DNA of 64,000 bases, taken from assembly GCF_058153355.1 (NCBI RefSeq), contig NZ_CM177019.1; one strand, written 5' to 3'. This document shows positions 2,568-54,121 of the stretch, piece by piece (within the stretch, counting starts at the first letter, position 1; each line of letters starts with the position of its first letter). The notes under the pieces were generated by a model. The model worked only from the letters and a program-made list of their open reading frames with translations, had not been told where the DNA came from and searched no databases. A program made the translations under genes and the position numbers.

Positions 2568-2594
2568 TTTCGTAAAGCAAAAAGGAGCAGGATG

Positions 2595-3743: not shown

Positions 3744-3761
3744 ATGCGCTGATGTGATAAT

Positions 3762-3791: not shown

Positions 3792-3797
3792 ACGCCG

Positions 3798-4664
<867 letters not shown>

Positions 4665-6032: not shown

Positions 6033-6089
6033 AGGAAATACATCGCGTTAAAACGGAGGAAGCGCCGCCCGAAAGCGGCGCGAAAGGAC

Positions 6090-11083: not shown

Positions 11084-11449
11084 GTCGACAGGGAGTCAGA
11101 CAACGAAGTGAACATCAGGATGATGACACTTCTGAAGGACACACCAGGAGGGTGTTTCAGGGAAAGGCTTCTGGATGAAGCGAAGAGGATGACGCAGGAC
11201 GCGTTAAAGGACACCTCCAGGATGGAGAATGAGAACCGGTCAGGATGATTCGGTGGGTCAGGAAGGCCAGGGACACTTCAGGATGAAGTATCACATCGGG
11301 GTGGTGTGAGCAGGAAGCAATAGTTCAGGATGAACTATTGGCCGCAAGGCCAGAGGAAAAGTTGTTAAGGATGAGCAGGGAGCAACAAAAGTAGCTGGAA
11401 TGCTGCGAAACGAACCGGGAGCACTGTGAATACAGTGCTCCCTTTTTTT
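11084..11449 (+). ncRNA. csrB: CsrB small RNA (CsrA-sequestering)
   Basis: Begins GTCGACAGGGAGTCAGACAACG; about 18-20 repeated CAGGA(U)G/AGGA motifs at roughly 15-25 nt intervals; ends in a GC hairpin GGGAGCACTGTGAATACAGTGCTCCC followed by T7 (11418-11449). Confidence 0.92.
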
Positions 11450-11494
11450 ATTCCTGCTATCCTTCGCGGCAGTTTTTCTTATTGAGGTTGCTTT

Positions 11495-31687: not shown

Positions 31688-31701
31688 TTCAATTCCTTTT
31701 G

Positions 31702-32640: not shown

Positions 32641-33226
32641 TCTGGCTAAAATCTATTGTTGGGGTTTTACTCACAGCGGCGACATCATCCGGCAAATAAT
32701 TTTTCTTCGGTGTGTAATCCATGACTTTTGCGGTTAACACTGCGGGGAATTTGCGGATAGTGACATTATATTGTTCGATGGCTTTAATATATCTTCCTCG
32801 CGCAACGGCAATTCGATTTTCACTTCCTTCGAGCTGTACCATCAAATTTTGATAGAGTTCCTGGGCCTTTAGCTCAGGGTAACGTTCACTAATTATCGTT
32901 AACTGACCGAGAGTGCGAGACACCTGCGCCTGAGCTTGTTGCCAGGTTTGTAATTTTTGTTCATCTCCCGGAGTTTGCTGAAGAGCACTACTGGCGCGAT
33001 TAGCCTGACTACGTGCCAATGTTACGGCTTCCAGTACCTCTTGTTCATGGCTGGAATAACCTTTAATACTGGCGACAAGATTAGGAATAAGATCGGCGCG
33101 ACGTTGATATTGATTTAATACCTCAGACCAGGAAGCGTTAACCTGCTCATCATAGGTTTGAATATCGTTATATCCACAGCCTGATAAATTGAAAATAAAT
33201 ATAATTACGATGAATATTCTGAGCAT
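32624..33226 (-). CDS. LemA-family lipoprotein
   Basis: 200-aa ORF with lipoprotein signal (lipobox LSGC) and LemA-type sequence (RRADLIPNLVASIKGYSSHEQEVLEAVTLARS...); first gene of the four-gene minus-strand cluster. Confidence 0.85.
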   Translation of the reverse strand: MLRIFIVIIFIFNLSGCGYNDIQTYDEQVNASWSEVLNQYQRRADLIPNLVASIKGYSSHEQEVLEAVTLARSQANRASSALQQTPGDEQKLQTWQQAQAQVSRTLGQLTIISERYPELKAQELYQNLMVQLEGSENRIAVARGRYIKAIEQYNVTIRKFPAVLTAKVMDYTPKKNYLPDDVAAVSKTPTIDFSQNANAH

Positions 33227-33398
33227 GGTTAAATTCCTTTTAATTAATTTCTTAAAACATAATACGCCACTTCATTTTATTCTTTATGATCTAATCCACT
33301 TTTTGCCTTAAACCTGCCTGTAACAGAATGTTAATAAGACATGATTGTTGTGGCAGGATCTGCAATAATTAACAATTATCCACTTCACAGAGAATGCT

Positions 33399-34070
33399 AT
33401 GCAGTACCCGATTAACGAGATGTTCCAGACCCTGCAAGGTGAGGGTTACTTTACCGGCGTCCCCGCCATTTTTATTCGTTTACAGGGATGCCCGGTCGGC
33501 TGTGCCTGGTGCGACACCAAACACACCTGGGAAAAGCTTGAGGATCGGGAAGTCTCCCTTTTCAGCATTCTGGCGAAGACCAAAGAGAGTGATAAGTGGG
33601 GGGCGGCGAGCAGTGAAGATTTGCTGGCTGTCATTGGTCGTCAGGGATACACCGCGCGGCATGTGGTGATTACGGGTGGTGAGCCTTGCATTCATGATTT
33701 GCTGCCACTGACTGACCTGCTCGAAAAGAACGGTTTTAGCTGCCAGATCGAAACCAGCGGTACTCATGAAGTACGCTGCACGCCGAATACCTGGGTTACC
33801 GTATCGCCAAAGCTGAACATGCGCGGCGGCTATGAAGTGTTGTCACAGGCACTGGAGCGAGCCAACGAAATCAAGCATCCAGTGGGACGCGTACGTGATA
33901 TTGAAGCACTGGATGAACTATTGGCGACGCTGACCGATGATAAACCACGAGTCATTGCACTGCAGCCAATTAGCCAAAAGGATGATGCCACACGTTTGTG
34001 CATTGAAACTTGCATTGCGCGTAACTGGCGTTTGTCGATGCAAACACATAAATATTTAAATATTGCCTGA
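33399..34070 (+). CDS. queE: 7-carboxy-7-deazaguanine synthase (radical SAM)
   Basis: 223-aa ORF recognised as QueE/YgcF (CxxxCxxC-type motif GCPVGCAWCDT). Confidence 0.93.
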   Translation: MQYPINEMFQTLQGEGYFTGVPAIFIRLQGCPVGCAWCDTKHTWEKLEDREVSLFSILAKTKESDKWGAASSEDLLAVIGRQGYTARHVVITGGEPCIHDLLPLTDLLEKNGFSCQIETSGTHEVRCTPNTWVTVSPKLNMRGGYEVLSQALERANEIKHPVGRVRDIEALDELLATLTDDKPRVIALQPISQKDDATRLCIETCIARNWRLSMQTHKYLNIA

Positions 34071-34353
34071 CAGGTAATGTGAGTAGAGGTTGTGACGATT
34101 AAGCCTCTACTCTTACATCAATCTGTAAATGCCCCATTTTCTCCTCTCTTTGGTCCGACTCCGCAATTTCGTATATTTTTCAATAGTGTTAATGTTTTGT
34201 CCAAGTAAAAATTACCAGACATTCGGAGGTTTTTAACTAACATTTATAGTGGGTAAATTGGTGGGATACGCTTAACCTTAAAAAATCAATATAAACAATA
34301 GGTTATGATTGGTGTTTGTCTTATCGGATGAACTAATTTAAATGGAGTACTAA

Positions 34354-34617
34354 ATGGCTACTTTAATGGAAAAAGATTCTCTCCTGAATGGCGTAAGTCA
34401 AAATATTGCATTTTTATCAAATGTATCAGAAATGATTTACAAGTCCCAGAATGAAGAATTACAAAAGGAGATATATGAATTGGTGAGTTATAGAGACTAT
34501 TTATATTCAACAGGCCATGAACTCGTTGATTTCAAGGAAGGAGTATTGCGATTTCAGCAAGTTAGAAAAAAATACATGCAGGATCTAAAAGCGCTAGGTT
34601 ATCCCGCAACCAATTGA
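34354..34617 (+). CDS. hypothetical small protein (87 aa) in an AT-rich islet
   Basis: ORF with GGAG Shine-Dalgarno 7 nt upstream; surrounding 34071-34797 is far more AT-rich than the flanks; no family recognised. Confidence 0.45.
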   Translation: MATLMEKDSLLNGVSQNIAFLSNVSEMIYKSQNEELQKEIYELVSYRDYLYSTGHELVDFKEGVLRFQQVRKKYMQDLKALGYPATN

Positions 34618-34797
34618 TAAATATGTCTTTATATTAATTTTAGGATGTGGATAACCTGCTGAAATTTATATTAAAAATGAAATAAAAATATTAAATTCAT
34701 ATCATGCTTGCGTTTTGTTCTCGATAACGCGTAATTTTGTTGAATGCTTTCTCCTGTGAATGCAAAACCAGGCAGTTTCCCGCCCGGCCTTCCTCAC

Positions 34798-36282
34798 TTA
34801 CGCATTCGACCAGCTCTGGATCGAATCTTCATTCCCCAGCTCACCATGCATCACTTCATACGATTTTTTCAGGATCACATCAGTGTGTTTGGTTAGGTCT
34901 TTGAAAATGCCTTTATTCATCGCGTCGTAGCGTTTGGCGTTGCTCTCAACAGGCATAAAGATATCTTTCACGCGAACCATTTTGTCGACAGCCGTTGCGT
35001 AATCCGGGTATAGCCCCAGACCTACCGCCGTATTAATCGCTGCCCCCAGGCTTGCACAACCGTTAATGGCGTTACGTCGTGCCGGAAGGTTGAACACGTC
35101 GGCAAAAATTTGCATAAACAGATCGCTGTTCGAACCGCCGCCAGTAATGATCACATGTTTCGCAAAGTGATTCATTTCATGACACATATTGTCGTAATTG
35201 TTCTTCAGCGTCAGCGTCAGCGCCACGCTTTCCAGTATCGAACGATATATCCATGCGTAATCCATGCTGGAATCAAAGCCGATCATAATCCCGCGTTTGT
35301 ACGGTTCCCACGGATTGGTCAGCCAGTCCAGCACCGTCATCAGACCATTACAGCCAGGCGGCACACAACAAGCTTTTTTGTTGAGCAAATCTTCCGGTGA
35401 AAGATCCTGCGCCCTGGCATCCTGAATTAACGATTCGCCTAGCATGTCGCGCAGCCAACTCACCGTCCACATGCCTTTGCGAATACCGTAACCTTCATAC
35501 AGCAAGGTTTGCGGAATAGAAGACATAATCGGCCAGTACGCTACCGGATCTTTCGGCAGTACTTTGCCGTTCATCATCAACGCGATGTAAGTGCCAAGAG
35601 AAATTACCGCAGTTTCATCATCCAGTAACCCGGCTCCCAGTGCTTCTACCGGTTTATCACTGGTGGTACAAACAACCGGCAGCCCAGCCGGGAAATGTGT
35701 CGCCAGCGCGGCTTGTGGTGTGATATGCCCAAGAACAGTGCCCGGCATTTGCACATCAAAAAGCATCTGTTGGGGAATATTAAACTTCTCCATTACCGCG
35801 GTATCTTCGCTCCATGCCCAGGTCTTATAATCCACCGGCCACTGACCAAAATAGTTGGCGATATTGTCTTTAAACTCGCCGGTTAAACGGTGTGTCAGAT
35901 AACCTGAAAAAGAGGTGACATATGCCACATCAGGATTGGTGTGCTCGTAGGGACGTGTTACGCGTGCATCCTGCCAGCTAATCAACGGCGCAGCTGGCGT
36001 GCCATCGGCTTTCAATAACGCACGGCAGCAACGGATAGATCCCAGACCAATGCCGACAATATCTTCTTTATTCCCGGCAAACTGGCTCATCAAATCGTGA
36101 CCAGCAAAACATAATGATGCCCATAAATCATCGTCAGGATGTTCTGCGGTATCGGCATCTGGAGTGTGCATCGGTTGTAATAAGCCTTTGCCTTCGCAAA
36201 CCACGTTACCTTCCAGATCGTACATCACCACTTTTGTGCTCTGACTTCCGCCATCAATCCCTATGATGTATTTTTTCGACAT
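34798..36282 (-). CDS. ygcE: FGGY-family carbohydrate kinase
   Basis: 494-aa ORF, FGGY kinase N-terminus (IGIDGGSQSTKVVMYD). Confidence 0.88.
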   Translation of the reverse strand: MSKKYIIGIDGGSQSTKVVMYDLEGNVVCEGKGLLQPMHTPDADTAEHPDDDLWASLCFAGHDLMSQFAGNKEDIVGIGLGSIRCCRALLKADGTPAAPLISWQDARVTRPYEHTNPDVAYVTSFSGYLTHRLTGEFKDNIANYFGQWPVDYKTWAWSEDTAVMEKFNIPQQMLFDVQMPGTVLGHITPQAALATHFPAGLPVVCTTSDKPVEALGAGLLDDETAVISLGTYIALMMNGKVLPKDPVAYWPIMSSIPQTLLYEGYGIRKGMWTVSWLRDMLGESLIQDARAQDLSPEDLLNKKACCVPPGCNGLMTVLDWLTNPWEPYKRGIMIGFDSSMDYAWIYRSILESVALTLTLKNNYDNMCHEMNHFAKHVIITGGGSNSDLFMQIFADVFNLPARRNAINGCASLGAAINTAVGLGLYPDYATAVDKMVRVKDIFMPVESNAKRYDAMNKGIFKDLTKHTDVILKKSYEVMHGELGNEDSIQSWSNA

Positions 36283-36308
36283 GATTTTTCTCCTGTAATT
36301 TTCCTGGC

Positions 36309-37586
36309 TTACTTGCTGCTAGCCATTGCGGGGGCGCTATCAGCAGTACGAATTTTTTGGAACAGCAAAAAGGTAAAGACGATCACCATGGCAAGCGCCG
36401 CCATGCCCATCAGCCACATATTGCGGTAGGCTTCTGCCGCGGGCAGGGTGTCTTGCCAGTGGCCGATAATTGGGTAAACGAAGACATCCGGCAGAAATCC
36501 AATCACCGAACAAATACCTACCGTGGTGCCCATAATGTAAGACGGTGTTCTCGCTTCGCCGGGGCAGGCCCAGTACAGCCCGCGGGAGGCGTAGCAGGTG
36601 AATCCCAGTAGTAAAATCAGGCCAATCCCCATCGCGACCGATTGCGGGTTAGAGTTCGTGATGAGCAGGGCAGTTAACGCCAGCAGGCCGAGTACGGAAA
36701 GGATTTGGATCACGCGGGTAGGGGATTTCACTTTGCTGTAGGTGGTGATAATGCCACCAAGTGGGCCGCACAGTGCGCGGAAGATTTTGTTGATCACAAT
36801 CCCCATGTAGCTCGCCGCCACCAGCGACATGCCGTACATTTCGGTCAGATAGTTGGTGGAGTAACTCAGAATGGCGTAGATGGTGAAGACGCCAAAAATC
36901 ACCATGCTGCAGTACCATGTGGTGCTGATACGCAAAACGGCAAGGATGTCGCTAAGCTGGAATGACTGTTTTTCTTCGGTGTTGGTATTGCGCAGGTTGT
37001 TGTTATCGCTAACAAAAAACCAGCACAGAATCCCCAACAAGATGTAAACCACACTATAGATGATAATGACCGTTTTCAGGCTGGCGCTGTCATCCGGTGC
37101 AAAGCGAGAAAAGACCCACATGGTAAACACCGCCAGCGACATTACACCGACGCCGCGCAGCCCTTCCATCCAGCCCATAATTTTCCCCTGCTCGCTATGA
37201 TCGCCAAGCAACGATGCGGCTTTAATCGACACCGACCACAGCATTAAAATCGTCGTTATCGCAAAGGCGACCTGAATACAGAGCATTACCCACAGCGGTG
37301 GATACGTTGCCATTAACAGACCCAGCAATCCGGTAATGATCATCGCGGAAGTAATCATTTTGCGGTGTGAAAATTTATCGGCAATAACGCTGCTGGGGGC
37401 ATAAAGAATAATAGCCGCAATACCAAAGGTACTCATTATTAAACCTATCTCGGTATTGCTGAATCCCATAAATTTCGCCATGGGAATTTGATAAATATAA
37501 CGTAAATAAGCCAGGTCGAAACTAACGCCGCCGCTAAAACTAATTATCGCGAGGGTTATCCAACGGCGATATGAGTTGTGTTGCAT
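36309..37586 (-). CDS. yqcE: MFS transporter
   Basis: 425-aa polytopic ORF upstream of ygcE on the same strand. Confidence 0.88.
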   Translation of the reverse strand: MQHNSYRRWITLAIISFSGGVSFDLAYLRYIYQIPMAKFMGFSNTEIGLIMSTFGIAAIILYAPSSVIADKFSHRKMITSAMIITGLLGLLMATYPPLWVMLCIQVAFAITTILMLWSVSIKAASLLGDHSEQGKIMGWMEGLRGVGVMSLAVFTMWVFSRFAPDDSASLKTVIIIYSVVYILLGILCWFFVSDNNNLRNTNTEEKQSFQLSDILAVLRISTTWYCSMVIFGVFTIYAILSYSTNYLTEMYGMSLVAASYMGIVINKIFRALCGPLGGIITTYSKVKSPTRVIQILSVLGLLALTALLITNSNPQSVAMGIGLILLLGFTCYASRGLYWACPGEARTPSYIMGTTVGICSVIGFLPDVFVYPIIGHWQDTLPAAEAYRNMWLMGMAALAMVIVFTFLLFQKIRTADSAPAMASSK

Positions 37587-37610
37587 ATCGTATTCCCATT
37601 TGTAATAGAC

Positions 37611-37658
37611 AAAAAAAAGAGAAAAGTAAGCCGCCCTTTCAGGTGGATTACTTTTCTC
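37611..37658 (-). terminator. intrinsic-terminator-like hairpin plus U8 in the yqcE 5' leader (candidate attenuator)
   Basis: Minus-sense: GAGAAAAGTAA (18-nt loop) TTACTTTTCTC followed by TTTTTTTT, ending about 25 nt upstream of the yqcE ATG; no upstream same-strand gene for it to terminate. Confidence 0.5.
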
Positions 37659-37764
37659 AGGTCTCTAGTAATTGCAGTAAGAAATAACATGGAAAGCAGT
37701 GGTGTTGTGTGAGAGTAATCACGCTTCTGCTTTTTAAAATTATTTGACAATTCGAATATCACAC

Positions 37765-37780
37765 TGTGATTACGATCACA
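37765..37780. promoter_or_regulatory. CRP-type site TGTGA-N6-TCACA in the yqcE/ygcW divergent promoter region
   Basis: Perfect match to both CRP half-sites with 6-bp spacer (TGTGATTACGATCACA), overlapping a second palindrome ATCACACTGTGAT. Confidence 0.55.
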
Positions 37781-37833
37781 TTAGCGCTTATGCCCTTATG
37801 CTAAAAATTATCTCCAGTTACCAGAGATAATGA

Positions 37834-37880
37834 GAAAGGTAACTTCCCTCTCGCGGGGGAAGTTACCTTTCTTTTTTTTT
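37834..37880 (+). terminator. intrinsic-terminator-like hairpin plus T9 in the ygcW 5' leader (candidate attenuator)
   Basis: 15-bp perfect stem GAAAGGTAACTTCCC / GGGAAGTTACCTTTC with 8-nt loop, followed by TTTTTTTTT, 24 nt upstream of the ygcW ATG. Confidence 0.55.
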
Positions 37881-37904
37881 GCCTTACGGAAATTGGAGCT
37901 AACT

Positions 37905-38690
37905 ATGTCAATCGAATCTCTCAATGCGTTCTCAATGGATTTTTTCTCCCTGAAAGGTAAAACCGCAATTGTTACCGGCGGGAATAGCGGTTTAGGCCAG
38001 GCATTTGCCATGGCACTCGCAAAAGCAGGCGCAAATATCTTTATTCCAAGTTTCGTTAAAGATAATGGCGAAACAAAGGAAATGATTGAAAAACAGGGTG
38101 TTGAGGTGGACTTCATGCAGGTGGATATCACCGCAGAAGGCGCGCCGCAGAAGATAATTACCGCCTGTTGTGAACGTTTCGGCACCGTCGATATTCTGGT
38201 TAACAATGCCGGTATATGTAAGCTGAATAAGGTGCTGGATTTCGGTCGTGCCGACTGGGACCCGATGATTGACGTGAACCTGACCGCCGCATTCGAGTTA
38301 AGCTATGAAGCGGCAAAAATTATGATCCCGCAGAAAAGCGGTAAAATCATTAATATCTGTTCATTATTCTCTTACTTAGGTGGACAATGGTCACCTGCAT
38401 ATTCTGCCACTAAACATGCTCTTGCCGGATTCACCAAAGCTTATTGTGATGAACTAGGTCAATATAATATTCAGGTAAATGGTATTGCCCCTGGCTATTA
38501 TGCAACAGATATCACCCTGGCGACACGCAGTAATCCAGAAACCAATCAGCGCGTTCTTGATCATATTCCGGCAAACCGTTGGGGCGATACTCAGGATTTA
38601 ATGGGCGCAGCCGTATTCCTCGCAAGTCCGGCTTCAAATTATGTTAACGGGCATTTATTAGTGGTCGATGGCGGTTATTTAGTGCGCTAA
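37905..38690 (+). CDS. ygcW: short-chain dehydrogenase/reductase (KduD-like)
   Basis: ORF 37830-38690 trimmed to MSIESLNAF...; SDR motifs TGGNSGLG and YSATK; the track N-terminal extension would run through the leader hairpin. Confidence 0.88.
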   Translation: MSIESLNAFSMDFFSLKGKTAIVTGGNSGLGQAFAMALAKAGANIFIPSFVKDNGETKEMIEKQGVEVDFMQVDITAEGAPQKIITACCERFGTVDILVNNAGICKLNKVLDFGRADWDPMIDVNLTAAFELSYEAAKIMIPQKSGKIINICSLFSYLGGQWSPAYSATKHALAGFTKAYCDELGQYNIQVNGIAPGYYATDITLATRSNPETNQRVLDHIPANRWGDTQDLMGAAVFLASPASNYVNGHLLVVDGGYLVR

Positions 38691-38759
38691 TCCATAACGG
38701 TGGTTTCTGATTTCTTTTATTAATGACTATTCCATTTTTATTATCAGGAAGGAATTACT

Positions 38760-40214
38760 ATGTCTTTATCTCGCGCAGCGATTGTCGACCAGCTAAAGGA
38801 AATTGTTGGTGCAGATCGCGTAATTACCGATGAAACGGTATTGAAGAAAAACAGTATTGATCGTTTTCGTAAATTTCCGGATATTCATGGTATTTATACT
38901 TTGCCTATTCCGGCAGCGGTCGTAAAACTCGGTTCCACAGAGCAAGTGTCCCGTGTGCTGAATTTTATGAATGCACACAAAATTAACGGCGTACCACGTA
39001 CCGGTGCTTCCGCTACCGAAGGCGGGCTGGAAACTGTTGTGGAAAACTCGGTGGTGCTCGATGGCTCTGCAATGAATCAAATCATTAATATTGATATAGA
39101 GAATATGCAGGCCACGGCGCAATGTGGCGTTCCGTTGGAAGTGCTGGAAAACGCGTTGCGTGAAAAAGGCTATACCACGGGGCATTCTCCGCAGTCAAAA
39201 CCGTTGGCGCAGATGGGTGGGTTGGTAGCTACCCGCAGCATCGGGCAGTTCTCCACACTCTACGGCGCAATCGAGGATATGGTCGTTGGCCTGGAAGCAG
39301 TACTGGTTGATGGCACCGTGACACGCATTAAAAACGTGCCACGACGCGCGGCGGGCCCGGACATTCGTCACATCATCATCGGCAACGAAGGTGCATTGTG
39401 CTATATCACTGAAATAACAGTGAAAATATTTAAATTCACTCCCGAAAACAACCTCTTTTATGGCTATATCCTGGAAGACATGAAGACCGGCTTCAACATC
39501 CTGCGTGAAATCATGGTGGAAGGATATCGTCCGTCGATCGCTCGTTTGTATGACGCTGAAGATGGCACCCAACACTTCACCCATTTTGCCGACGGAAAAT
39601 GCGTGCTGATCTTTATGGCTGAAGGTAACCCTCGCATTGCGAAGGCGACGGGCGAAGGGATTGCAGAAATCGTGGCACGTTACCCGCAATGCCAGCGCGT
39701 GGACAGTAAGCTGATCGAAACCTGGTTTAACAACCTGAACTGGGGACCGGATAAAGTGGCTGCCGAACGTGTGCAGATCCTCAAAACCGGCAACATGGGC
39801 TTTACCACCGAAGTGTCCGGCTGCTGGAGTTGCATACACGAAATCTACGAAAGCGTTATTAACCGTATTCGTACCGAGTTCGCGCACGCCGACGACATCA
39901 CCATGCTGGGCGGTCACTCCTCTCATAGCTATCAGAACGGCACCAACATGTACTTCGTCTACGACTACAACGTTGTTGACTGTAAGCCGGAAGAGGAAAT
40001 CGACAAATACCACAATCCGCTCAACAAAATCATCTGCGAAGAAACCATTCGCCTCGGCGGTTCGATGGTACACCATCACGGTATCGGTAAACATCGTGTT
40101 CACTGGAGCAAACTGGAACACGGCAGCGCGTGGACATTGCTGGAAGGGCTGAAAAAACAGTTCGATCCTAACGGTATTATGAATACGGGTACTATCTATC
40201 CGATTGAAAAATAA
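38760..40214 (+). CDS. ygcU: FAD-linked oxidase (GlcD / alkyl-DHAP-synthase-like)
   Basis: 484-aa ORF with FAD-binding PCMH-type N-domain. Confidence 0.85.
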   Translation: MSLSRAAIVDQLKEIVGADRVITDETVLKKNSIDRFRKFPDIHGIYTLPIPAAVVKLGSTEQVSRVLNFMNAHKINGVPRTGASATEGGLETVVENSVVLDGSAMNQIINIDIENMQATAQCGVPLEVLENALREKGYTTGHSPQSKPLAQMGGLVATRSIGQFSTLYGAIEDMVVGLEAVLVDGTVTRIKNVPRRAAGPDIRHIIIGNEGALCYITEITVKIFKFTPENNLFYGYILEDMKTGFNILREIMVEGYRPSIARLYDAEDGTQHFTHFADGKCVLIFMAEGNPRIAKATGEGIAEIVARYPQCQRVDSKLIETWFNNLNWGPDKVAAERVQILKTGNMGFTTEVSGCWSCIHEIYESVINRIRTEFAHADDITMLGGHSSHSYQNGTNMYFVYDYNVVDCKPEEEIDKYHNPLNKIICEETIRLGGSMVHHHGIGKHRVHWSKLEHGSAWTLLEGLKKQFDPNGIMNTGTIYPIEK

Positions 40215-40307
40215 TGTGTCAGGCAGCGTTTCGCGATGACGGGGCGTTGTCTTTTCGGCTTCTCAACCGGGAAGCCGTTCTTATTACCGGACAATGAAGG
40301 GGTAAAG

Positions 40308-41645
40308 ATGAACACTTCACCGGTGCGAATGGATGATTTACCGCTTAACCGTTTTCACTGTCGAATTGCTGCGCTGACTTTCGGCGCACACCTGACCGAC
40401 GGTTATGTTCTCGGCGTCATTGGTTACGCCATAATTCAGCTTACTCCAGCCATGCAACTGACGCCGTTTATGGCGGGAATGATTGGTGGCTCGGCGCTAC
40501 TTGGCCTGTTTATCGGCAGCCTGGTTTTGGGGTGGATCTCCGACCATATCGGGCGGCAAAAAATCTTCACCTTCAGCTTTATGCTGATTACGCTCGCCTC
40601 GTTCCTGCAATTTTTTGCCACCACGCCAGAGCATCTTATTGGACTACGCATTTTGATCGGCATTGGTCTGGGAGGCGACTATTCAGTAGGTCACACCTTG
40701 CTGGCTGAATTTTCCCCGCGCCGCCATCGCGGTATTTTGCTAGGCGCTTTCAGCGTGGTGTGGACCGTAGGCTATGTGTTGGCAAGTCTTGCCGGACATC
40801 ACTTTATTAGCGAAAGCCCCGAAGCCTGGCGATGGTTACTTGCATCGGCGGCATTTCCTGCCCTGTTGATTACGTTGTTACGTTGGGGAACGCCAGAATC
40901 GCCACGCTGGCTACTGCGCCAGGGGCGTTTTGCAGAAGCTCACGCTATCGTGCATCGCTATTTTGGTCCCCATGTTTTACTGGGCGATGAAGTGGCAACG
41001 GCGACCCATAAACACATCAAAACCTTGTTCTCTTCGCGCTACTGGCGGCGCACGGCGTTTAACAGCGTCTTCTTTGTCTGCCTCGTAATCCCATGGTTTG
41101 TGATTTATACCTGGCTGCCAACTATCGCCCAGACTATTGGACTGGAAGATGCGCTGACTGCCAGCCTGATGCTTAATGCGTTGTTAATTGTGGGCGCGCT
41201 GCTGGGATTATTTCTGACGCACCTGCTGGCACATCGCAAATTTTTACTTGGCAGTTTTTTGTTGCTGGCGGCAACGCTGGTAGTGATGGCCTGTTTGCCT
41301 TCTGCCTGTTCATTAACGCTGCTGCTTTTTGTTCTCTTCAGTACCACCATTTCGGCAGTCAGTAATCTGGTGGGCATTTTGCCTGCGGAAAGTTTTCCTA
41401 CTGACATTCGCTCGCTGGGTGTCGGTTTTGCCACTGCCATGAGTCGGTTGGGGGCGGCGGTAAGTACTGGCCTGCTGCCGTGGGTGCTGGCGCAGTGGGG
41501 AATGCAAGTCACCTTATTGCTCCTGGCGGCAGTGTTGTTGGTTGGTTTTGTTGTGACCTGGCTATGGGCGCCAGAAACCAAAGCACTCCCGCTGGTGGCG
41601 GCGGGAAATGTAGGAGGTACTAATGAACATTCTGTTAGCATTTAA
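40308..41645 (+). CDS. ygcS: MFS sugar-type transporter
   Basis: ORF 40236-41645 trimmed to MNTSPVRMDD... with GAAGGGG Shine-Dalgarno; polytopic MFS. Confidence 0.85.
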   Translation: MNTSPVRMDDLPLNRFHCRIAALTFGAHLTDGYVLGVIGYAIIQLTPAMQLTPFMAGMIGGSALLGLFIGSLVLGWISDHIGRQKIFTFSFMLITLASFLQFFATTPEHLIGLRILIGIGLGGDYSVGHTLLAEFSPRRHRGILLGAFSVVWTVGYVLASLAGHHFISESPEAWRWLLASAAFPALLITLLRWGTPESPRWLLRQGRFAEAHAIVHRYFGPHVLLGDEVATATHKHIKTLFSSRYWRRTAFNSVFFVCLVIPWFVIYTWLPTIAQTIGLEDALTASLMLNALLIVGALLGLFLTHLLAHRKFLLGSFLLLAATLVVMACLPSACSLTLLLFVLFSTTISAVSNLVGILPAESFPTDIRSLGVGFATAMSRLGAAVSTGLLPWVLAQWGMQVTLLLLAAVLLVGFVVTWLWAPETKALPLVAAGNVGGTNEHSVSI

Positions 41646-42402
41646 AGCCGAACCAGATGCCGGAATGCTGGCAGAAAAAGAGTGGCAGGTGGCGGCTCAG
41701 GGTAATCGCGGACCGGATGTTTCGCTGCTGCGAAGTTTACTCGGTGCTGATGAACAGGCCGCTGCCGCGCTTCTGTTAGCGCAGAGAAAAAACGGTACGC
41801 CGATGTCTTTAACCGCGTTGAGCATGGGGGATGAACGGGCGTTGCACTGGCTGCGCTATCTTATGGCGTTGGGGTTTGAGAAGGCAGTATTGCTGGAGAC
41901 GGCGGCAGATCTGCGCTTTGCACCGGAATTTGTCGCCCGGCATATTGCCGAATGGCAGTGCCAGAATCCGCTGGATCTGATAATTACCGGCTGCCAGAGC
42001 AGCGAAGGGCAGAACGGGCAAACGCCATTTTTGCTGGCGGAAATGCTGACCTGGCCCTGTTTTACCCAGGTGGAGCGTTTTACTCTCGACGCACCGTTTA
42101 TCTCGCTCGAACAGCGTACTGAACATGGATTACGCTGTTGTCGGGTTCGCTTGCCTGCGGTGATTGCCGTGCGCCAGTGTGGCGAGGTGGCCTTGCCAGT
42201 ACCGGGAATGCGCCAGCGAATGGCTGCGGGGAAAGCTGAAATTATCCGCAAAACTGTTACTGCTGAATCGTCTGCGATGCAGTGCCGGCAACTGGAAAGG
42301 CCAGAGCAACGACGCGGTGCAACGCTTCTTGATGGACAAACGGTAGCAGAAAAAGCGCAAAAGCTATGGCAGGACTATTTACGCCAAAGGATGCAGCCAT
42401 GA
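41623..42402 (+). CDS. ygcR: electron-transfer flavoprotein beta-subunit-like (FixA-like)
   Basis: 259-aa ORF; ETF-beta-like; translationally coupled (ATGA overlap) with ygcQ. Confidence 0.85.
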   Translation: MNILLAFKAEPDAGMLAEKEWQVAAQGNRGPDVSLLRSLLGADEQAAAALLLAQRKNGTPMSLTALSMGDERALHWLRYLMALGFEKAVLLETAADLRFAPEFVARHIAEWQCQNPLDLIITGCQSSEGQNGQTPFLLAEMLTWPCFTQVERFTLDAPFISLEQRTEHGLRCCRVRLPAVIAVRQCGEVALPVPGMRQRMAAGKAEIIRKTVTAESSAMQCRQLERPEQRRGATLLDGQTVAEKAQKLWQDYLRQRMQP

Positions 42403-43259
42403 ATATCGCCATTGTGACAATAAATCAGGAACATGCCGCAATAGCGGGCTGGCTGGCGGAGCAGGATTTCAGCGGCAGCACATTAACGCACTGGCAAATC
42501 GAGCCGCAGCCGATGGTCGCGGAACAGGTGCTGGATGCGCTGGTAGAACAGTGGCAGCGAACGCCTGCGGACGTTGTTCTCTTTCCGCCGGGAACGTTTG
42601 GCGATGAACTGGCTACCCGCCTGTCCTGGCGTTTACATGGTGCCAGTATATGCCAGGTGACTTCATTAAATATTCCAACCGGAAGCGTACGCAAATCCCA
42701 CTGGGGAAATGCGCTAACGGCGACGCTGCAAACAGAAAAACGCCCGCTATGCTTCTCCCTGGCGCGTCAGGCGGGAGCAGATAAAAACGCCTCGTTGCCC
42801 CCGGGTATGCAGCAACTGAACATTGTCCCAGGTGCGCTTCCCGGCTGGCTGGTTAGCATAGTGAACCTGAAAAATGTTACCCGTGACCCATTAGCTGAGG
42901 CCAGACGGGTGCTGGTGGTGGGGCAGGGCGGAGAGGCAGATAACCAGGAAATCGCTATGCTGGCAGAAAAGCTGGGAGCCGAAGTGGGCTACAGTCGGGC
43001 GCGAGTAATGAACGGTGGCGTTGATGCCGAAAAAGTGATTGGTATTTCCGGACATCTGCTGGCACCTGAGGTGTGTATTGTTGTTGGCGCTTCCGGCGCA
43101 GCAGCGTTAATGGCGGGCGTCCGCAATAGCAAGTTTGTGGTGGCGATTAATCATGACGCCAGCGCGGCGGTATTTTCACAGGCAGATGTTGGCGTGGTTG
43201 ATGACTGGAAAGCGGTGCTGGAGGCACTGGTGACAACCATTCACGCAGATTGCCAATAA
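42399..43259 (+). CDS. ygcQ: electron-transfer flavoprotein alpha-subunit-like (FixB-like)
   Basis: ORF 42366-43259 trimmed to MNIAIVTINQ...; ETF-alpha-like. Confidence 0.85.
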   Translation: MNIAIVTINQEHAAIAGWLAEQDFSGSTLTHWQIEPQPMVAEQVLDALVEQWQRTPADVVLFPPGTFGDELATRLSWRLHGASICQVTSLNIPTGSVRKSHWGNALTATLQTEKRPLCFSLARQAGADKNASLPPGMQQLNIVPGALPGWLVSIVNLKNVTRDPLAEARRVLVVGQGGEADNQEIAMLAEKLGAEVGYSRARVMNGGVDAEKVIGISGHLLAPEVCIVVGASGAAALMAGVRNSKFVVAINHDASAAVFSQADVGVVDDWKAVLEALVTTIHADCQ

Positions 43260-43307
43260 CGTGCTGCCGGATGATCCTGCCTACGGTTCTGGGCTGGGGA
43301 CTTGTAA

Positions 43308-43342
43308 GCCTGATAAGACGCGTCAAGCGTCGTATCAGGCGC
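43308..43342. repeat. REP palindrome between convergent ygcQ and ygcP
   Basis: GCCTGATAAGACGCGTCAAGCGTCGTATCAGGCGC, typical enterobacterial REP sequence. Confidence 0.75.
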
Positions 43343-43405
43343 TGAATGTCGGATGTGGCGTGCAGCCTACAAATCACACAAATTCAATTCGTTACGATTA
43401 TCTCG

Positions 43406-43981
43406 TCAAAGCAATTTTTTCGCTAACGTCCAGACCCCGGTATTCGTGGTAGAAAGCGCCACTACACCGGCGTTAATCGCATTACGCGCATCTTCTTCAT
43501 CGCACACCAGCCCGCCAGCAATCAGCGGCTGGTGGATTTTCTCCGTTACCCAGCCCAGTACTTTAGGCATACAGCCTGGCAGAATTTCAATACAATCCGG
43601 GTTCGATTGCGCAACCTGTTTATCAATGTTGTGAAATGAAATCGAATCAACAATAAACAAGCGATGAATACAGAAAAAGCCTTCCGCTCTCGCCGCTTTT
43701 AGCATTGACGCTTTGGTACTGATAATGCCGTCCGCCTCGGTCACCAGTTTCAGAAACTGAATTACTACTTCTTTATTTGACGCGCCTTCCAGCAAATCGA
43801 CATGAATAAAAGCATATTTTCCGGCGTTCTTAATCTTTTTGACGATATGACTGATGGTGCAAATATTGCCGTATAACACGGAAATAAACTGGCATTCAGA
43901 ATCGATTGCCAACTGCAGGCTGGCATTATCTTTAACGGCAGCAATCACCGGATTCTGGCGGAGCAGGTGTAAGAGGGGCAT
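43406..43981 (-). CDS. ygcP: GlpP-like putative transcription antiterminator
   Basis: 191-aa ORF recognised as YgcP (glycerol-3-phosphate-responsive antiterminator family). Confidence 0.85.
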   Translation of the reverse strand: MPLLHLLRQNPVIAAVKDNASLQLAIDSECQFISVLYGNICTISHIVKKIKNAGKYAFIHVDLLEGASNKEVVIQFLKLVTEADGIISTKASMLKAARAEGFFCIHRLFIVDSISFHNIDKQVAQSNPDCIEILPGCMPKVLGWVTEKIHQPLIAGGLVCDEEDARNAINAGVVALSTTNTGVWTLAKKLL

Positions 43982-43997
43982 AAATTATCCTTATTAT

Positions 43998-44258
43998 TTA
44001 TCCAAAGCGGTAGGTGATGCCGAATCCGGAAGGCGGATAGCGCCACTGTTGTAGCGTTTTTTCATCGCACAGCAAACGGCAGGTGCCGCACTCCAGACAA
44101 TTACGATAATCAACGTGCAAATCACCTTCCGGTGTGAGCGAAAAAAGACCAGCCGGACAAGCGTTAATCAACCGTTCTGCCGTCTGGCGCTCAACGGAGT
44201 CAGCCGGAACAATATGTGGCGCATCAGCAGCGCGCCAGAGATTACGGGCTACAGACAT
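43998..44258 (-). CDS. ygcO: ferredoxin-like protein (FixX-like)
   Basis: ORF 43998-44294; Cys-rich (CLECGTCRLLC); start uncertain, placed at MSVARNLW. Confidence 0.75.
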   Translation of the reverse strand: MSVARNLWRAADAPHIVPADSVERQTAERLINACPAGLFSLTPEGDLHVDYRNCLECGTCRLLCDEKTLQQWRYPPSGFGITYRFG

Positions 44259-45520
44259 CGAATACTCCTGACAACATCGCCCGCCAGATGCCACAGGCCA
44301 TGACGACGTAAATGACGCCAGAGCAACTGGCGCAGCGGCGGAACAGGTTTATCACCTTGATCCCATAAATCACGGGAAATATCCTGCATTAACACAGGCC
44401 ACTTACGGTACCAGCCCGGGCGTTGCAAAAGCGCCGGAACATGCTGATAGCGCTGTAGAACATCCCACAGCAGGCTGCGCTCTACGTTGTAATGATAAAG
44501 CGGAAACAGATTTTGCGGCTCGCGGTGCTGGCAGGCGCTTATCAGCGTTTGTGCCGCCGCCTGCGCGCCAGTTAGCGCCATATCCATGCCGCGCACGGAA
44601 ATTCCGGTATTGACGCAACTGCGCAACGTATCGCCCACCAGCAGCCAGCCGTTACCGGCGTATTGCACCGGCATACTGTGCAGGCCACCTTCCGGCACCA
44701 GATGCGCGCCATACTCCAGCGATTCCGCGCTTTTGATAAGCTGGCGCACTGCCGGATGCGTTTTAAAGCGGGCCAGCAGCTCGCTTGCCGGAACACGACT
44801 TTGCGTAAGTGAAGAGAGCGGGCAAACAATCCCTAACGAGAGCGTTTGTTGATTAGTATAAAGAAATGCGCCGCCGGGTAAGTCATCACAGATTCCGCCG
44901 CTGAACAGCAACGCTGCGCCTTCGTTATTCTCCAGATGAAAACGTTCTTCAATAGCGGATGTTTCCAGTGAAAGAACTTCTTTGATCCCCAACGCCATCG
45001 CTTCGCCAGCAGGACGAGTCACTAACCCGTGACGCTCAGCCAGGACGCTGTTGGCACCTTCTGCCAGCACCACATAACGGGCGCGGAGAATATCGTCACC
45101 ACAAATAACGCCGCAAACTCTGCCGTTTTCTTCATACAGCGCATCTACCGTCGCACCAGGGATGCATTCGACACCTTCTTTTTCGGCTTCGGCAACCAGC
45201 CACGGATCGAACCGTGCACGTAATACGCTCCAGGATTCACCGCCGGGCTGTAAGCTGGAAAACGTCGTTGCGCCATCCGGCGTTAGCAGAGAAAGACTTT
45301 CGTGAGTGATGCGTCGTTCAAGAGGCGCGGTCAGGTGAAACTGAGGGAGGAGTTCCGCGAGCGCATGGGTGTATAAACGCCCGCCGGAAAGGTTTTTACT
45401 GCCGGGAATTTCAGCGCGTTCCAGTAACAGAACGGATAAACCTGCCCGCGCGCAGCGTAAAGCACAAGCGGTGCCTGCTATACCCGCACCAATAATAATA
45501 ATGTCGCAGTCGTCTTCCAT
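44249..45520 (-). CDS. ygcN: ETF-quinone oxidoreductase-like flavoprotein (FixC-like)
   Basis: ORF 44249-45550 trimmed to MEDDCDIIIIGAGIAG... (FAD dinucleotide-binding motif). Confidence 0.85.
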   Translation of the reverse strand: MEDDCDIIIIGAGIAGTACALRCARAGLSVLLLERAEIPGSKNLSGGRLYTHALAELLPQFHLTAPLERRITHESLSLLTPDGATTFSSLQPGGESWSVLRARFDPWLVAEAEKEGVECIPGATVDALYEENGRVCGVICGDDILRARYVVLAEGANSVLAERHGLVTRPAGEAMALGIKEVLSLETSAIEERFHLENNEGAALLFSGGICDDLPGGAFLYTNQQTLSLGIVCPLSSLTQSRVPASELLARFKTHPAVRQLIKSAESLEYGAHLVPEGGLHSMPVQYAGNGWLLVGDTLRSCVNTGISVRGMDMALTGAQAAAQTLISACQHREPQNLFPLYHYNVERSLLWDVLQRYQHVPALLQRPGWYRKWPVLMQDISRDLWDQGDKPVPPLRQLLWRHLRRHGLWHLAGDVVRSIRCL

Positions 45521-45597
45521 GTCATGCCCCAGATATCCAGAGCGCAACACCCTAACATAGCGTTACTTAAGGGAAATTGACCGCCGACACACTCTTA

Positions 45598-45963
45598 TCA
45601 TTCGCCGCGATAGATGCAACCTGCGGTGCAGGTTTCTTTCACCATAACCGCACTTAACAGCGGAACAACCGGTTTAACCTGATCCCAAATCCATTTTGCT
45701 AAAACCTCGCTGGTCGGGTTTTCCAGGCCAGGAATATCATTGAGATAATAGTGATCGAGGCGATCATAGGTTGGTTTAAATGCCGCTTTCAGTTCAGCGA
45801 AATCGATAATCCAGCCCGTATGCGGATCGACTTCCCCGGTAATTTCCAGTCGCACCATAAAGGAATGCCCATGCAGGCGACCACATTTATGTCCTTCCGG
45901 GACGTGTGGTAAGCGGTGAGCGGCTTCGAAGGTGAAATCTTTAAATAACGTGGTGGACATCAT
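45598..45963 (-). CDS. queD: 6-carboxy-5,6,7,8-tetrahydropterin synthase
   Basis: ORF 45598-46047 trimmed to [10 protein letters not shown]... (121 aa); PTPS-family motif [24 protein letters not shown]. Confidence 0.9.
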
Positions 45964-46278
45964 AATTTCTCTACATGACGATAAAACCGCCGTAGAGTAC
46001 CGGAAAGGCTGTTTTTTCGCATTATCTAAAACGACTTTGTTGCGCAAAATCGCTGATTTATCTTAATGATTGGCTAAATTCATTTGTTTTTCATTGGGTT
46101 GGTTAATCTGTTTTGTTGTTAAAGACTATTGCTAAAACAGGTTAGTCGATTTGGTTATTAGTTATCGCTATCCCGTCTTTAATCCACACCGTTCACCCCG
46201 TTAACCTTACCTTCTCTTCTGTTTTATGGGCGCTGACAGGGCGCAGAAACAGCTTTGCTTACTGGAACATAACGACGC

Positions 46279-50604: not shown

Positions 50605-50868
50605 ATATTGCCGGATAAAATAAACGCCTCTGTCAGAAATGATGGGGGCGTTTTTATTTTGCGAGCCGCATTCCGGCATTTAAACGTGAATATAGCAGGG
50701 GAAATCAACAGTTATAGAATGGCGTCGGGTGCTTGAGGCTGTCTGGTGTTGAGCATTCGCGAGGTTCCAGATGGACAAAAGCCCCAGGCGATATATCTAT
50801 CAACCTGAGGCTTACGTTCGAACCCAAACAATTCGAATGTTAGTCTCTTCTTTGCAGGGAGGCAAGAC

Positions 50869-51021
50869 ATGCTGACAAAATATGCCCTTGTGGCAATCAT
50901 CGTACTGTGTTGTACAGTACTGGGATTCACGCTGATGGTAGGCGACTCGTTGTGTGAGTTGAGTATCAGAGAACGTGGTATGGAGTTTAAGGCAGTTCTC
51001 GCTTACGAACCGAAGAAGTAG
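50869..51021 (+). CDS. hokX: Hok/Gef-family small membrane toxin (50 aa)
   Basis: Not in the ORF track (under 60 aa). Translation [50 protein letters not shown] shows the Hok pattern (N-terminal TM helix, conserved LCE...R..G..E..A...AYE). Followed by GC hairpin CGCGGGGGTAAAACCCCGCG and a T-run. Locus name from my recollection of hokX/sokX between cysH and cas3 in K-12. Confidence 0.7.
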
Positions 51022-51259
51022 CCACCACGCGGGGGTAAAACCCCGCGTATTGAATTGTGATGGTTTGGTCTCCTGCACCCTTTTTTTCATTTATATTGTT
51101 TTTGTGAATATTATGCCTGTGTTTATTATTTATATATATCACAGATGAAAATCATTGAATTATTCATAATGTAAATATTTTATTGAACGATATATATCAC
51201 AGATAATTTTTAATATATGCGTAAATATCCTTTAAGTTTTACTGAAGGATAAAAACATT

Positions 51260-52911
51260 GTGACTTTCTTTGATTTCTGGGGAAAAACCCGACGTGGCGA
51301 GAAAGAGGGTGGCGACGATTATCACCTTCTTTGCTGGCATTCGCTGGATGTAGCCGCGATAGGCTATTTAATGGTCAAAAACAACTGTTTCGGGCTGGCT
51401 GACTATTTTCGTCAATTAGGTTTCGCTGACACGGATCAGGCAGCACAATTTTTCGCCTGGTTGTTGTGCTGGCACGATACTGGAAAATTTGCCCGCTCAT
51501 TTCAGCAACTTTACCTGCACCCACAACTCAAGGTTCCGGAAGGCGCAAGAAAGAATTACGAAAAGATCTCTCATTCAACGCTGGGTTACTGGTTGTGGCA
51601 TCATTATTTAATTGAATGTGAAGAGTTGCTTCCTTCATCTTCACTCTCTTTGCGCAAACTTAAACGGGTAATAGATATGTGGATGCCCGTGACGACCGGG
51701 CATCATGGTCGGCCTCCTGACCGTATCGATGAACTGGACAACTTTCTACCTGAAGACAAAGCTGCCGCACGAGATTTTCTCCTTGAAATCAAGGTACTGT
51801 TTCCGCTCATCGAGATCCCTACATTCTGGGATGATGACGAGGGCGTTGAACTTATAAAACATCTTTCCTGGTATATATCTGCAACCGTCGTACTCGCAGA
51901 CTGGACGGGATCGTCAACGCGGTTTTTTCCACGCGTCGCACATGTAATGGATATTAAAGATTACTGGCAGAATGCTTTAGCTCAGGCTCAAAACGCATTA
52001 ACCGTCTTTCCTCCAAAAGCAGAAACCGCACCTTTCACTGGAATTAACACGCTGTTTCCTTTTATTGAGAACCCAACACCGTTACAGCAAAAGGTGCTGG
52101 ATCTGGATATCAGCCAGCCAGGACCGCAGTTGTTTATTCTGGAAGATGTGACTGGCGCAGGTAAAACAGAAGCGGCGCTTATCTTGGCGCACAGGTTGAT
52201 GTCTGCGGGGAAAGCACAGGGTTTGTTTTTTGGCCTGCCAACAATGGCAACGGCCAATGCCATGTACGATAGGCTGGTAAAAACCTAGCTTGCTTTCTAT
52301 TCGCCACAATCCCGCCCCAGCCTGGTGCTGGCACACAGCGCTCGTTCGCTAATGGATCGCTTTAACGCATCGCTGTGGTCTGGTGATTTTGTGGGGTCAG
52401 AAGAACCGGATGAACAAGCGTTCAGTCAGGGATGTGCGGCCTGGTTTGCTGACAGTAACAAGAAGGCGTTGCTGGCTGAAATTGGCGTCGGCACGCTGGA
52501 TCAGGCGATGATGGCGGTGATGCCGTTCAAACATAATAATCTGCGGCTTCTGGGGCTGAGTAACAAAATCCTGCTAGCCGATGAGATCCACGCCTGTGAC
52601 GCTTATATGTCGTGCATTCTTGAAGGGCTGATCGAGCGGCAGGCGCGTGGCGGAAACAGCGTTATTTTGCTTTCTGCTACGTTGTCTCAACAGCAGCGTG
52701 ACAAACTCGTCGCCGCCTTTGCGCGTGGTGCAGAGGGCCAGCAAGAAGCTCCGTTGCTGGAAAAAGATGATTATCCCTGGCTGACGCATGTCACGAAATC
52801 CGATGTGCATTCGCACCGGGTAGCGACGCGCAAAGACGTTGAGCGCAGCGTGAGTGTGGGTTGGCTTCATAGCGAACAAGAGTGTATTGCGCGTATCGAA
52901 TCGGCGGTAAG
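51260..52911 (+). pseudogene. cas3: cas3 remnant (type I-E HD nuclease/helicase), in-frame TAG at 52286-52288 and 3' truncated at about codon 550
   Basis: Track ORFs 51260-52288 and 52325-52936 are in the same frame, separated by one amber codon; HD motif region (LLCWHSLDVAAIGY...HDTGKF) and Walker A (DVTGAGKTEA) present; reading frame runs directly into CRISPR repeat 1. Confidence 0.85.
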
Positions 52912-53062
52912 GTGTTCCCCGCGCCAGCGGGGATAAACCGTCGACAATGGATAAGTTGACTTCAGGTCTGGGGAGTTCCCCGCGCTAGCGGGAATAAACC
53001 GTGCAGTACGCCTGATGACAAACCAAGCATCGGGAGTTCCCCCGCGTCAGCGGGGGAACTCC
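52912..53062 (+). CRISPR. orphan type I-E CRISPR mini-array (3 repeats, 2 spacers)
   Basis: Repeat 1 52912-52940 GTGTTCCCCGCGCCAGCGGGGATAAACCG; spacer 52941-52972; repeat 2 52973-53001 (2 mismatches); spacer 53002-53033; degenerate terminal repeat from 53034. Spacers are 32 bp; repeat matches the E. coli I-E consensus. Confidence 0.9.
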
Positions 53063-53083
53063 CAGCTCCCATTTTCAAACGCC

Positions 53084-54121
53084 TCATGACGCCTTCGCCA
53101 GTTCCTTCACTAGCGGTAGCATTATCCGCATAACGTCACGGCAGCGACGTTCTATTCTTCCAGGAAGCGCCTTATCAATATGCTGTTGATTATCAAGCCT
53201 TACATCATGCCAGCTATTTCCCGCCGGGAAGGCCGGTGTTTTTGCGCGTTGCTGATAACCATCCTTATTTCCAAGATTCCAGTTGGTCGCCTCCACCGAA
53301 AGTACCGCAATACCGGCTTTGTCGAAAACTTCTGCATCGTTACAACACCCAGTGCCTTTCGGATAGTTTTTATTCAAACCTGGATTTGTTGTCGCTGCAA
53401 TCCCATGATTATGCGCAATTGCCAGCGCTCGATCACGGGTTAATTTCCTGACAGCCTCTGGTGTATTTACACCACTATTAAAATACAATTTATCGCCAAC
53501 AATTAAGTTATCGAGATTAATCACCAGCAGCGTATTTTTCTTTTCAGTATCGCTCATGCGCTTGAGTAAATTCTCAGCGCCTAATTTCCCTTCTTCTTCT
53601 CCACTGGTTGCCACAAAACGAATACCATACTCGGTAGGCGTATTTTTCAGACGTTCAGCCAGTTCCAGCATGACACCTAAACCTGCGGCGTTATCATCCA
53701 TTCCTTGTAATGTCAGCCCGCCGAGATTGGCATCGGCGTCGGCATCGCTCAGTGGAGCGTACGTATCAAGATGCGCCATAATAATGATCTGCTGCGGCGC
53801 TTTGCCTTCATGAGCGGCAATCACCGTACTTCCCGTCACGTTGTGCCAGTTTTTGCGGTTATCGCGGGCGGTGTAAATATATCGGCTATTAAATGTCCGA
53901 ATATCACTGCGATAACCCATCTGTTGAAACTGTTGGCGAATATAATCGGCAGATAACATTTCTGCAGGAGTTCCGGTCATGCGTCCCGGAAAGAAAGTAG
54001 CAATATGTCGTGCCTGTGTATTAGCAAAATCACCAGGTTTAGGTGACGAGGCGTGTACGGGGAGAATAAAGCATACGCCGAGCGCCAGGGCAGCGGTACG
54101 GTGGCGCAATGCGGAAAACAT
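53084..54121 (-). CDS. iap: alkaline phosphatase isozyme conversion aminopeptidase
   Basis: 345-aa ORF with signal peptide, recognised as Iap (M28 peptidase). Confidence 0.92.
   Translation of the reverse strand: MFSALRHRTAALALGVCFILPVHASSPKPGDFANTQARHIATFFPGRMTGTPAEMLSADYIRQQFQQMGYRSDIRTFNSRYIYTARDNRKNWHNVTGSTVIAAHEGKAPQQIIIMAHLDTYAPLSDADADANLGGLTLQGMDDNAAGLGVMLELAERLKNTPTEYGIRFVATSGEEEGKLGAENLLKRMSDTEKKNTLLVINLDNLIVGDKLYFNSGVNTPEAVRKLTRDRALAIAHNHGIAATTNPGLNKNYPKGTGCCNDAEVFDKAGIAVLSVEATNWNLGNKDGYQQRAKTPAFPAGNSWHDVRLDNQQHIDKALPGRIERRCRDVMRIMLPLVKELAKAS

Follow-up and report, generated by a model that had tools for sequence, protein, structure and literature searches.

A two-spacer remnant of an E1-type I-E CRISPR array beside iap in Escherichia coli: sources of its spacers and nature of its upstream edge

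Two spacers with their repeats lie where E. coli has its CRISPR I locus, flanked by cas/cysH and iap, in the 64,000-nt stretch of contig NZ_CM177019.1 that was analysed here as a whole (the window). They raise the question of what system they were part of, how the rest of it was lost, from which elements the spacers were taken and whether what is left can still act. The original prediction had placed two retained I-E spacers at 52941-53033, and both strings are found exactly there, the interval spanning S1, R2 and S2 as defined below.

State of the array and of its flanks

On the + strand the locus is read in the order cas3 stump, R1, S1, R2, S2, R3 and iap, and its parts, together with the RNA gene upstream of cas3, are the following.

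50727-50884, + strand: antisense RNA sok, belonging to the hok/sok module that lies before E1-type cas3 (Rfam RF01794, 111.5 bits)
51217-52911, + strand: cas3 pseudogene remnant, of which nt 1-1694 out of 2700 are left (matches to Cas3 HD and helicase-core families of NCBIfam on two ORF pieces)
52911-52912, + strand: deletion junction, cas3 nt 1694 abutting base 1 of the full repeat R1
52912-52940, + strand: repeat R1, GTGTTCCCCGCGCCAGCGGGGATAAACCG, the perfect E1-type E. coli I-E consensus
52941-52972, + strand: spacer S1, 32 nt, with its protospacer in the DUF6651 gene of SSU5-like phage-plasmids
52973-53001, + strand: repeat R2, GAGTTCCCCGCGCTAGCGGGAATAAACCG, which departs from the consensus by substitutions at positions 2, 14 and 21
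53002-53033, + strand: spacer S2, 32 nt, the terminal spacer
53034 to about 53063, + strand: degenerate terminal repeat R3, on the iap side of the array
53084-54121, - strand: iap, which flanks E. coli CRISPR I on the trailer side and is conserved there

R1 and R2 are 29-nt E. coli I-E repeats with the CCCCGC/GCGGGG hairpin, exact in R1 and with the three substitutions in R2, and the repeat-to-repeat spacing is 61 and 62 nt. Each spacer is present as a single copy in the 64-kb window (0/100 shuffles matched), and, with up to 3 mismatches allowed, no further I-E repeat was detected elsewhere in the 64 kb. The G21A substitution of R2 means the loss of a base pair at the hairpin foot of the repeat; this R2 variant also precedes S2 in strains SCU-172 and GF131, and close variants of it are found in L032 and 2020CK-00188. 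At the iap end, R3 and the two final nt of S2 make up a perfect palindrome of 14 bp (arms 53032-53045 and 53050-53063) with an RNA fold of -35.7 kcal/mol (z = -8.5). This GC-rich element (53032-53063) lies 20 nt from the iap stop and is possibly a bidirectional terminator or a transcript stabiliser. Its perfect form is common to the window, L029 and L032, while SCU-172, GF131 and several other relatives lack one G, so that their stem is imperfect. In 2020CK-00188 (L001 6381-6400; also in L027, L033 and L034) the palindrome is gone, cut out between two short direct repeats, and GAGTTCCC is joined to ATTTTC.

The 5' flank of the array is made up of cysJ, cysI, cysH, hok/sok and the cas3 remnant, the 3' flank of iap and cysDNC. 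The hok ORF lies at about 50869-51021, and a Hok/Gef CDS is found in the same position in all relatives, among them L042, which matches the window at 100% identity. When aligned with the intact cas3 of SCU-172, the remnant is 93.2% identical from nt 1 and homology stops at nt 1694; its reading frame is broken by a +1 frameshift (51237) and by an in-frame stop codon (52286-52288). Past nt 1694 the cas3 of SCU-172 reads TCAGGGG and the window reads GTGTTCC, and no microhomology was found at the 52911/52912 junction. An AT-rich leader with promoter and IHF site is absent upstream of R1: where L003 (SCU-172) and L032 have a leader ending in GTATGCTTAGT directly before GTGTT, the window has cas3 ending at nt 1694.

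None of cse1-cse2-cas7-cas5-cas6e-cas1-cas2 is present beside the array, and no further cas matches were obtained within the 64-kb window. The second I-E array site (CRISPR II), from queE (33399-34070) to ygcE (34798-36282), holds 0 repeats; what occupies it (34071-34797) is an AT-rich stretch of 730 bp with an 87-aa ORF (34355-34618). With no leader, no cse1-cas2 genes and a decayed cas3 fused to base 1 of R1, the array is a dead relic, and the locus that of a deleted I-E system, ordinary in kind. The fusion of the array to the truncated cas3 had escaped the original prediction.

In the remainder of the window, a gene for an IS4-family transposase (448 aa, 28248-29594) is inserted just downstream of eno, and a full-length CsrB sRNA gene is located at 11093-11452 (Rfam, 377 bits). 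The ygcE-ygcN region (window 30000-46000) reaches only 90-95% identity to about 5,350 E. coli genomes, and cysH/cysDN 94-95% against strains such as SCU-172. For the fuc-sda region (window 1-9000) the values are 95-99% identity to E. coli, with a best value of 99.0%. By these identities, the CRISPR-flanking region is locally far more divergent than the remainder of the window, and the DNA is assigned to E. coli in the broad sense (sensu lato).

Junctions between truncated cas3 and the repeat boundary

The upstream edge of the relic was compared with those of E. coli genomes carrying an E1-type cas3 close to iap, a sample found under coverage and gap limits. The cas3 breakpoints in this sample were as follows.

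cas3 nt 1470: AH04
cas3 nt 1486: TCM3e1
cas3 nt 1555: N17
cas3 nt 1569: STEC384
cas3 nt 1671: A36 and A20
cas3 nt 1694: the window studied (52911/52912)
cas3 nt 2046: WEC and three others
cas3 nt 2168: GF131
cas3 nt 2459: 2020CK-00188

All nine breakpoints abut base 1 of a full consensus repeat, and they span at least eight cas3 allele backgrounds (loci behind the junctions: the window, L001, L002, L012-L014, L018 and L021-L026). A random end-point would be expected on base 1 of a repeat in about 1/61 of cases. When more junction types were sought via other Iap alleles, only known types came back. The nine junctions are independent of one another and form a recurrent class of precise deletions.

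Two candidate mechanisms were rejected. If a spacer acquired from cas3 had recombined with its source, an AWG PAM would be predicted 32 nt upstream of each junction; the triplets found there are CAA, GTG, GAG, ATG, ATA, CCA, CGT, GCT and GAA, so that the PAM is absent in 9/9, and no CTT follows any of the junctions. Consequently, the cas3 ends were not picked in the manner of prespacers and spacer-protospacer recombination is rejected. Microhomology-mediated deletion was discarded as well, since just 0-1 nt are common to both sides at the nine junctions. The account left over is that of a break or a strand transfer specific to the repeat boundary, with the left end placed arbitrarily.

The 5' boundary of the repeat is where the first, sequence-dependent cut in spacer integration is made (PMC3737337). 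By the polarity of I-E integration, the strand cut there is that of the junction. With regard to the left ends, the operon of SCU-172 (L016 and L003) has three top-strand Chi sites, at cas3 nt 2531, in casA and about 6.5 kb into the operon, oriented so as to halt RecBCD coming from the array side. All nine left ends fall 72-1061 nt left of the leftmost of these sites (cas3 nt 2531), a distribution that is biased by the limits under which the genomes were found. This pattern is a hint that RecBCD may have resected the DNA from the array side.

In another class of deletions (L015, L017, L038, L040, L041 and L039), the leader is kept and the right end lies in cas2 or cas1. The right end at cas2 nt 70 was seen three times, with left ends at cas3 nt 2037, cas3 nt 1557 and casA nt 426, and related leader-keeping deletions join cas3 nt 2037 to cas2 nt 61 and cas3 nt 1585 to cas1 nt 842. 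The left ends of both classes cluster, at 1555/1557/1569/1585 and at 2037/2046.

It is a tentative possibility that the adaptation machinery itself made the cas3::repeat junction, a possibility that two versions carry jointly. In the first, Cas1-Cas2 would join a chromosomal 3'-OH in cas3, provided by a break or a nascent-strand end, to the leader/spacer-repeat phosphodiester that is its normal point of attack; in the second, a Cas1-Cas2 break at the repeat would be followed by one-sided resection and rejoining. In both cases the machinery would have deleted its own operon. Both would account for breakpoints at repeat base 1 in nine of nine cases across at least eight allele backgrounds, this boundary being the first cut site of the integrase (PMC3737337), but the PAM-ruler signature is missing from every one of them. 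The location of all left ends left of the first Chi site (cas3 nt 2531) also fits, with the reservation that the Chi pattern is confounded by the coverage and gap limits, and the leader-keeping class ending in cas2 or cas1 is left unaccounted for by the integrase idea. No experimental precedent for a cas deletion made by adaptation was found in the literature searched. As both versions concern how the relic was formed, they are compatible with the main explanation of the locus, given below. In its general form, the proposal that E. coli I-E loci are repeatedly destroyed at the integrase target, where Cas1-Cas2 or the break made by it would join chromosomal ends to the array and drive the loss of its own system, is doubtful; the Cas1-Cas2 reading of the junctions is built on a positional coincidence, 9/9 at repeat base 1.

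An ordinary deletion made without Cas proteins, whether IS-mediated or by random illegitimate recombination, is unlikely. Most cas-E loss is ascribed to IS186/ISu recombination by Almendros et al. 2014 (PMC3903273), IS421 is present at the locus in many of the sampled genomes and the window has its IS4-family transposase (28248-29594), yet the junction is without an IS or an IS scar. Moreover, chance would place about 1/61 of ends on base 1, against the 9/9 observed, and there is no microhomology.

Position, rarity and sources of the two spacers

S1 and S2 had been described in the original prediction as the leader-distal, oldest spacers of the former array, and this description is supported by the arrays of relatives. 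SCU-172 (L003) has a full cas operon, a leader and three spacers, of which the last two are S1 and then S2 with one SNP. The closest intact relative, L032, was found via the exact Iap protein, which the public assembly collection has in 354 blocks; its flank is 98.5% identical, with the same terminal palindrome, and its E1 cas genes and leader are accompanied by 18 spacers whose final two are exactly S1-S2. In both of these relatives with intact systems the leader lies towards cas2, and the S1-S2 pair comes last without exception, adjoining iap. The leaderless 10-spacer array of GF131 has the S1-S2 pair at its end. That of 2020CK-00188, leaderless and with 11 spacers, ends with exact S2; S1 is missing and a hybrid repeat stands where it would be, which points to a loss of S1 via repeat-repeat recombination. 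Among the arrays of L032, GF131, SCU-172 and 2020CK-00188, S1 and/or S2 are the sole common spacers and everything upstream is different, so that the trailer placement is supported by the 18-spacer array and by four arrays sharing trailer spacers alone.

Position within an array is a fallible clock of age, because arrays are mosaic. The spacer CAAAATTT... / CAAAATTTAAAATC... is the first of 13 in the leaderless L018 and the 11th of 13 in the leader-bearing L050, which shows that arrays in the species are mosaics produced by repeat-repeat recombination. For the same reason, tracing first spacers into leader-bearing arrays in order to place the junction repeat, as the leader-proximal one of an already short array or as an internal one, proved uninformative.

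In complete E. coli genomes S1 is found in 7/5,426 and S2 in 8/5,426, always in terminal position. The carrier sublineages are split by A/G at S2 position 24, T/C at R2 position 14 and a one-base indel in R3. An ORF created by the junction, ending in IESAVRCSPRQRG and a stop, is recorded in only 3 public contigs, and one of these (SRR8656992) matches the window at 100% identity across 5.6 kb. The expected usefulness of the spacers for strain typing holds in part: they are a rare trailer signature that marks a lineage, and since the pair is a conserved array end it gives no resolution inside that lineage. Together, the S1-S2 pair and the junction are good lineage markers.

For the source of S1, PLSDB plasmids, phage records, IMG/VR and E. 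coli genomes were searched. S1 matches 17 phage and 747 plasmid records, all in one gene, a DUF6651 gene that SSU5-like phage-plasmids carry between their portal gene and their major capsid gene. The matching elements include Salmonella phage SSU5, S. Typhi pHCM2, Y. pestis pMT1 and about 230 E. coli plasmids. Representative protospacers are as follows.

Salmonella and Enterobacter non-mobilizable IncFIB plasmids of about 105 kb (L005, L007): 31/32, PAM AGG
IMG/VR contig L009 (101 kb): 31/32, PAM AAG
SSU5 and E. coli pTB212: 29/32, PAM AAG
E. coli p09EL50: 28/32, PAM AAG

The best plasmid matches have E = 3e-6, and no exact 32/32 protospacer was found in these searches, 31/32 being the best. 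The mismatches, at positions 6, 21, 24 and 30, are all third-codon and synonymous, the peptide STMDKLTSGL being invariant. Cascade flips out every sixth base, which is left unread, and positions 6, 24 and 30 are among these, the single mismatch of the best match (31/32, AAG) being at such a position; the set of permissive I-E PAMs is likewise established knowledge of the system. Were the system active, S1 would face present E. coli members of the group with one effective mismatch, at position 21 and outside the seed. The acquisition motif of E1 systems is CWT, equivalent to AWG (PMC3737337), and SSU5, pHCM2 and pMT1 have been placed in one phage-plasmid group (Pfeifer et al. 2021, PMC7969092). 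In that group the S1 protospacer lies in a conserved gene of the structural module with a canonical I-E PAM, and the best matches are in Salmonella/Enterobacter elements, not in those of E. coli. These matches resolve the source of S1 as the DUF6651 head-morphogenesis gene of an SSU5-like phage-plasmid, and S1 is a record of an encounter with this group.

Among GTDB representatives, S1 matches only two contigs, from MAGs labelled Spirochaetia and Bacillota (L019, L020), each with an SSU5-type protospacer at 29/32 and an AAG PAM; these are probably enterobacterial phage-plasmid contamination of the MAG bins. A full-text literature search for both spacer sequences returned no mention of S1 or S2, and no chromosomal target of either was found in the 5,426 E. 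coli genomes, the chromosomal matches all being CRISPR arrays.

S2 was searched more widely. No match was obtained in phages by blastn, in IMG/VR with sixth-position-degenerate or wobble-degenerate patterns in three frames, or in GTDB representative genomes and JGI metagenomes with the frame-1 wobble-degenerate pattern. The best similarity, 23/24 over positions 9-32 and in frame, is to a 1255-aa LPD7-domain gene of IncI1 plasmids, present in about 1,300 conjugative plasmids. This gene lies between a PLD-family nuclease gene and, downstream, conjugal-transfer (type IV secretion) genes, and by its position we take it to be probably the sog primase gene. An origin of S2 in such an IncI1-type conjugative plasmid is quite unlikely. 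Conjugative plasmids are a plausible target class and the in-frame stretch is in its favour, but the match over the full length is 24/32, only 1/8 of the first positions, which contain the seed, are matched and the PAM is GTG. The E value is 0.06-0.1 per database with three databases searched, and no better homologue of S2 was found among 72,556 plasmids.

As the original prediction had stated, the protospacer sources could not be read from the window itself and databases were needed. The BLASTN comparison with phage, plasmid and E. coli genomes that it proposed has traced S1 to SSU5-like elements and has left S2 without a convincing match, its best being the 24/32 above.

History, present state and relation to known systems

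Taken together, the stretch is very probably the trailer-end stump of a hok-linked E1 type I-E array at E. coli CRISPR I (CRISPR2.1, iap-cysH). Under this explanation, the ancestor would have resembled the array of L032, with a leader and 18 spacers ending in S1-S2. S2 would be the older acquisition, its source being missing from current databases or diverged past recognition, and S1 would have been taken from the DUF6651 head-morphogenesis gene of an SSU5-like phage-plasmid next to an AAG PAM. From established I-E biology, the crRNA of S1 would have directed interference against such phage-plasmids in the time when Cascade and Cas3 were present. The leader and all of cse1-cas2 would then have been lost, cas3 being severed at nt 1694 and its stump fused to base 1 of the repeat before S1, and the frameshift and stop codon would have entered the cas3 stump afterwards.

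In the present state a leader promoter, Cas6e, Cascade and Cas3 are all missing and no repeats stand at the CRISPR II site, I-E cas genes and repeats being judged within the 64-kb window, and S1 and S2 are consequently without function. Any RNA made from them would now be read-through from the cas3 stump. They would persist as neutral sequence, perhaps sheltered by the terminal-repeat hairpin near the iap stop. That S1 and S2 are still used, the orphan array being served in trans by an I-E cas operon elsewhere in the genome, is extremely improbable: such service exists in other systems and stump read-through could transcribe the array, but I-E genes are confined to the CRISPR I locus in all E. 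coli relatives examined, no further I-E repeat was detected in the window, where the CRISPR II site is empty, the leader is missing and G21A weakens the hairpin of R2.

The nearest known counterpart of the relic is the E. coli CRISPR I/CRISPR2.1 array with cas-E1 (hok-linked, O157-type), for which Almendros et al. 2014 give the same site, cysH-hok/sok-cas3...iap (PMC3903273). The 29-nt repeat, the 32-nt spacers and the degenerate terminal repeat beside iap are the same in both; in contrast to the complete E1 locus, the relic is without leader or cse1-cas2, has a truncated and decayed cas3 and keeps two spacers only. In the same paper, the minor or derived cas-less CRISPR-I arrangements B-G and their subscripted variants, from E. 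coli and Shigella, have likewise lost the leader and cas-E1, with the array partly depleted and the iap-side trailer kept (PMC3903273). Those arrangements are put down there to IS186/ISu insertion and IS-IS recombination, whereas the junction of the relic is without an IS and cut at repeat base 1. The repeat-boundary rule is not described in the text consulted of Almendros et al. 2014 (PMC3903273), nor was it found in the other literature searches.

What is new at this locus is the origin of S1 in SSU5-like phage-plasmids and the membership of its upstream edge in a recurrent class of precise repeat-boundary deletions. Another kind of array, the orphan I-F CRISPR4 arrays of E. coli, likewise persists without cas genes; these reportedly carry anti-cas spacers, in work by Almendros et al. 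from 2016. Unlike them, S1 and S2 match no cas gene or chromosome, and no sign of retained function is seen.

By itself, the relic matters little, as a neutral record of contact between an Escherichia lineage and SSU5-like phage-plasmids, whose present-day members carry genes for resistance and virulence in Enterobacteriaceae. E. coli is a species in which CRISPR-Cas is famously silent and patchy, and if the precise repeat-boundary deletions were general and Cas1-dependent, they would provide a concrete and testable mechanism of CRISPR-Cas loss.
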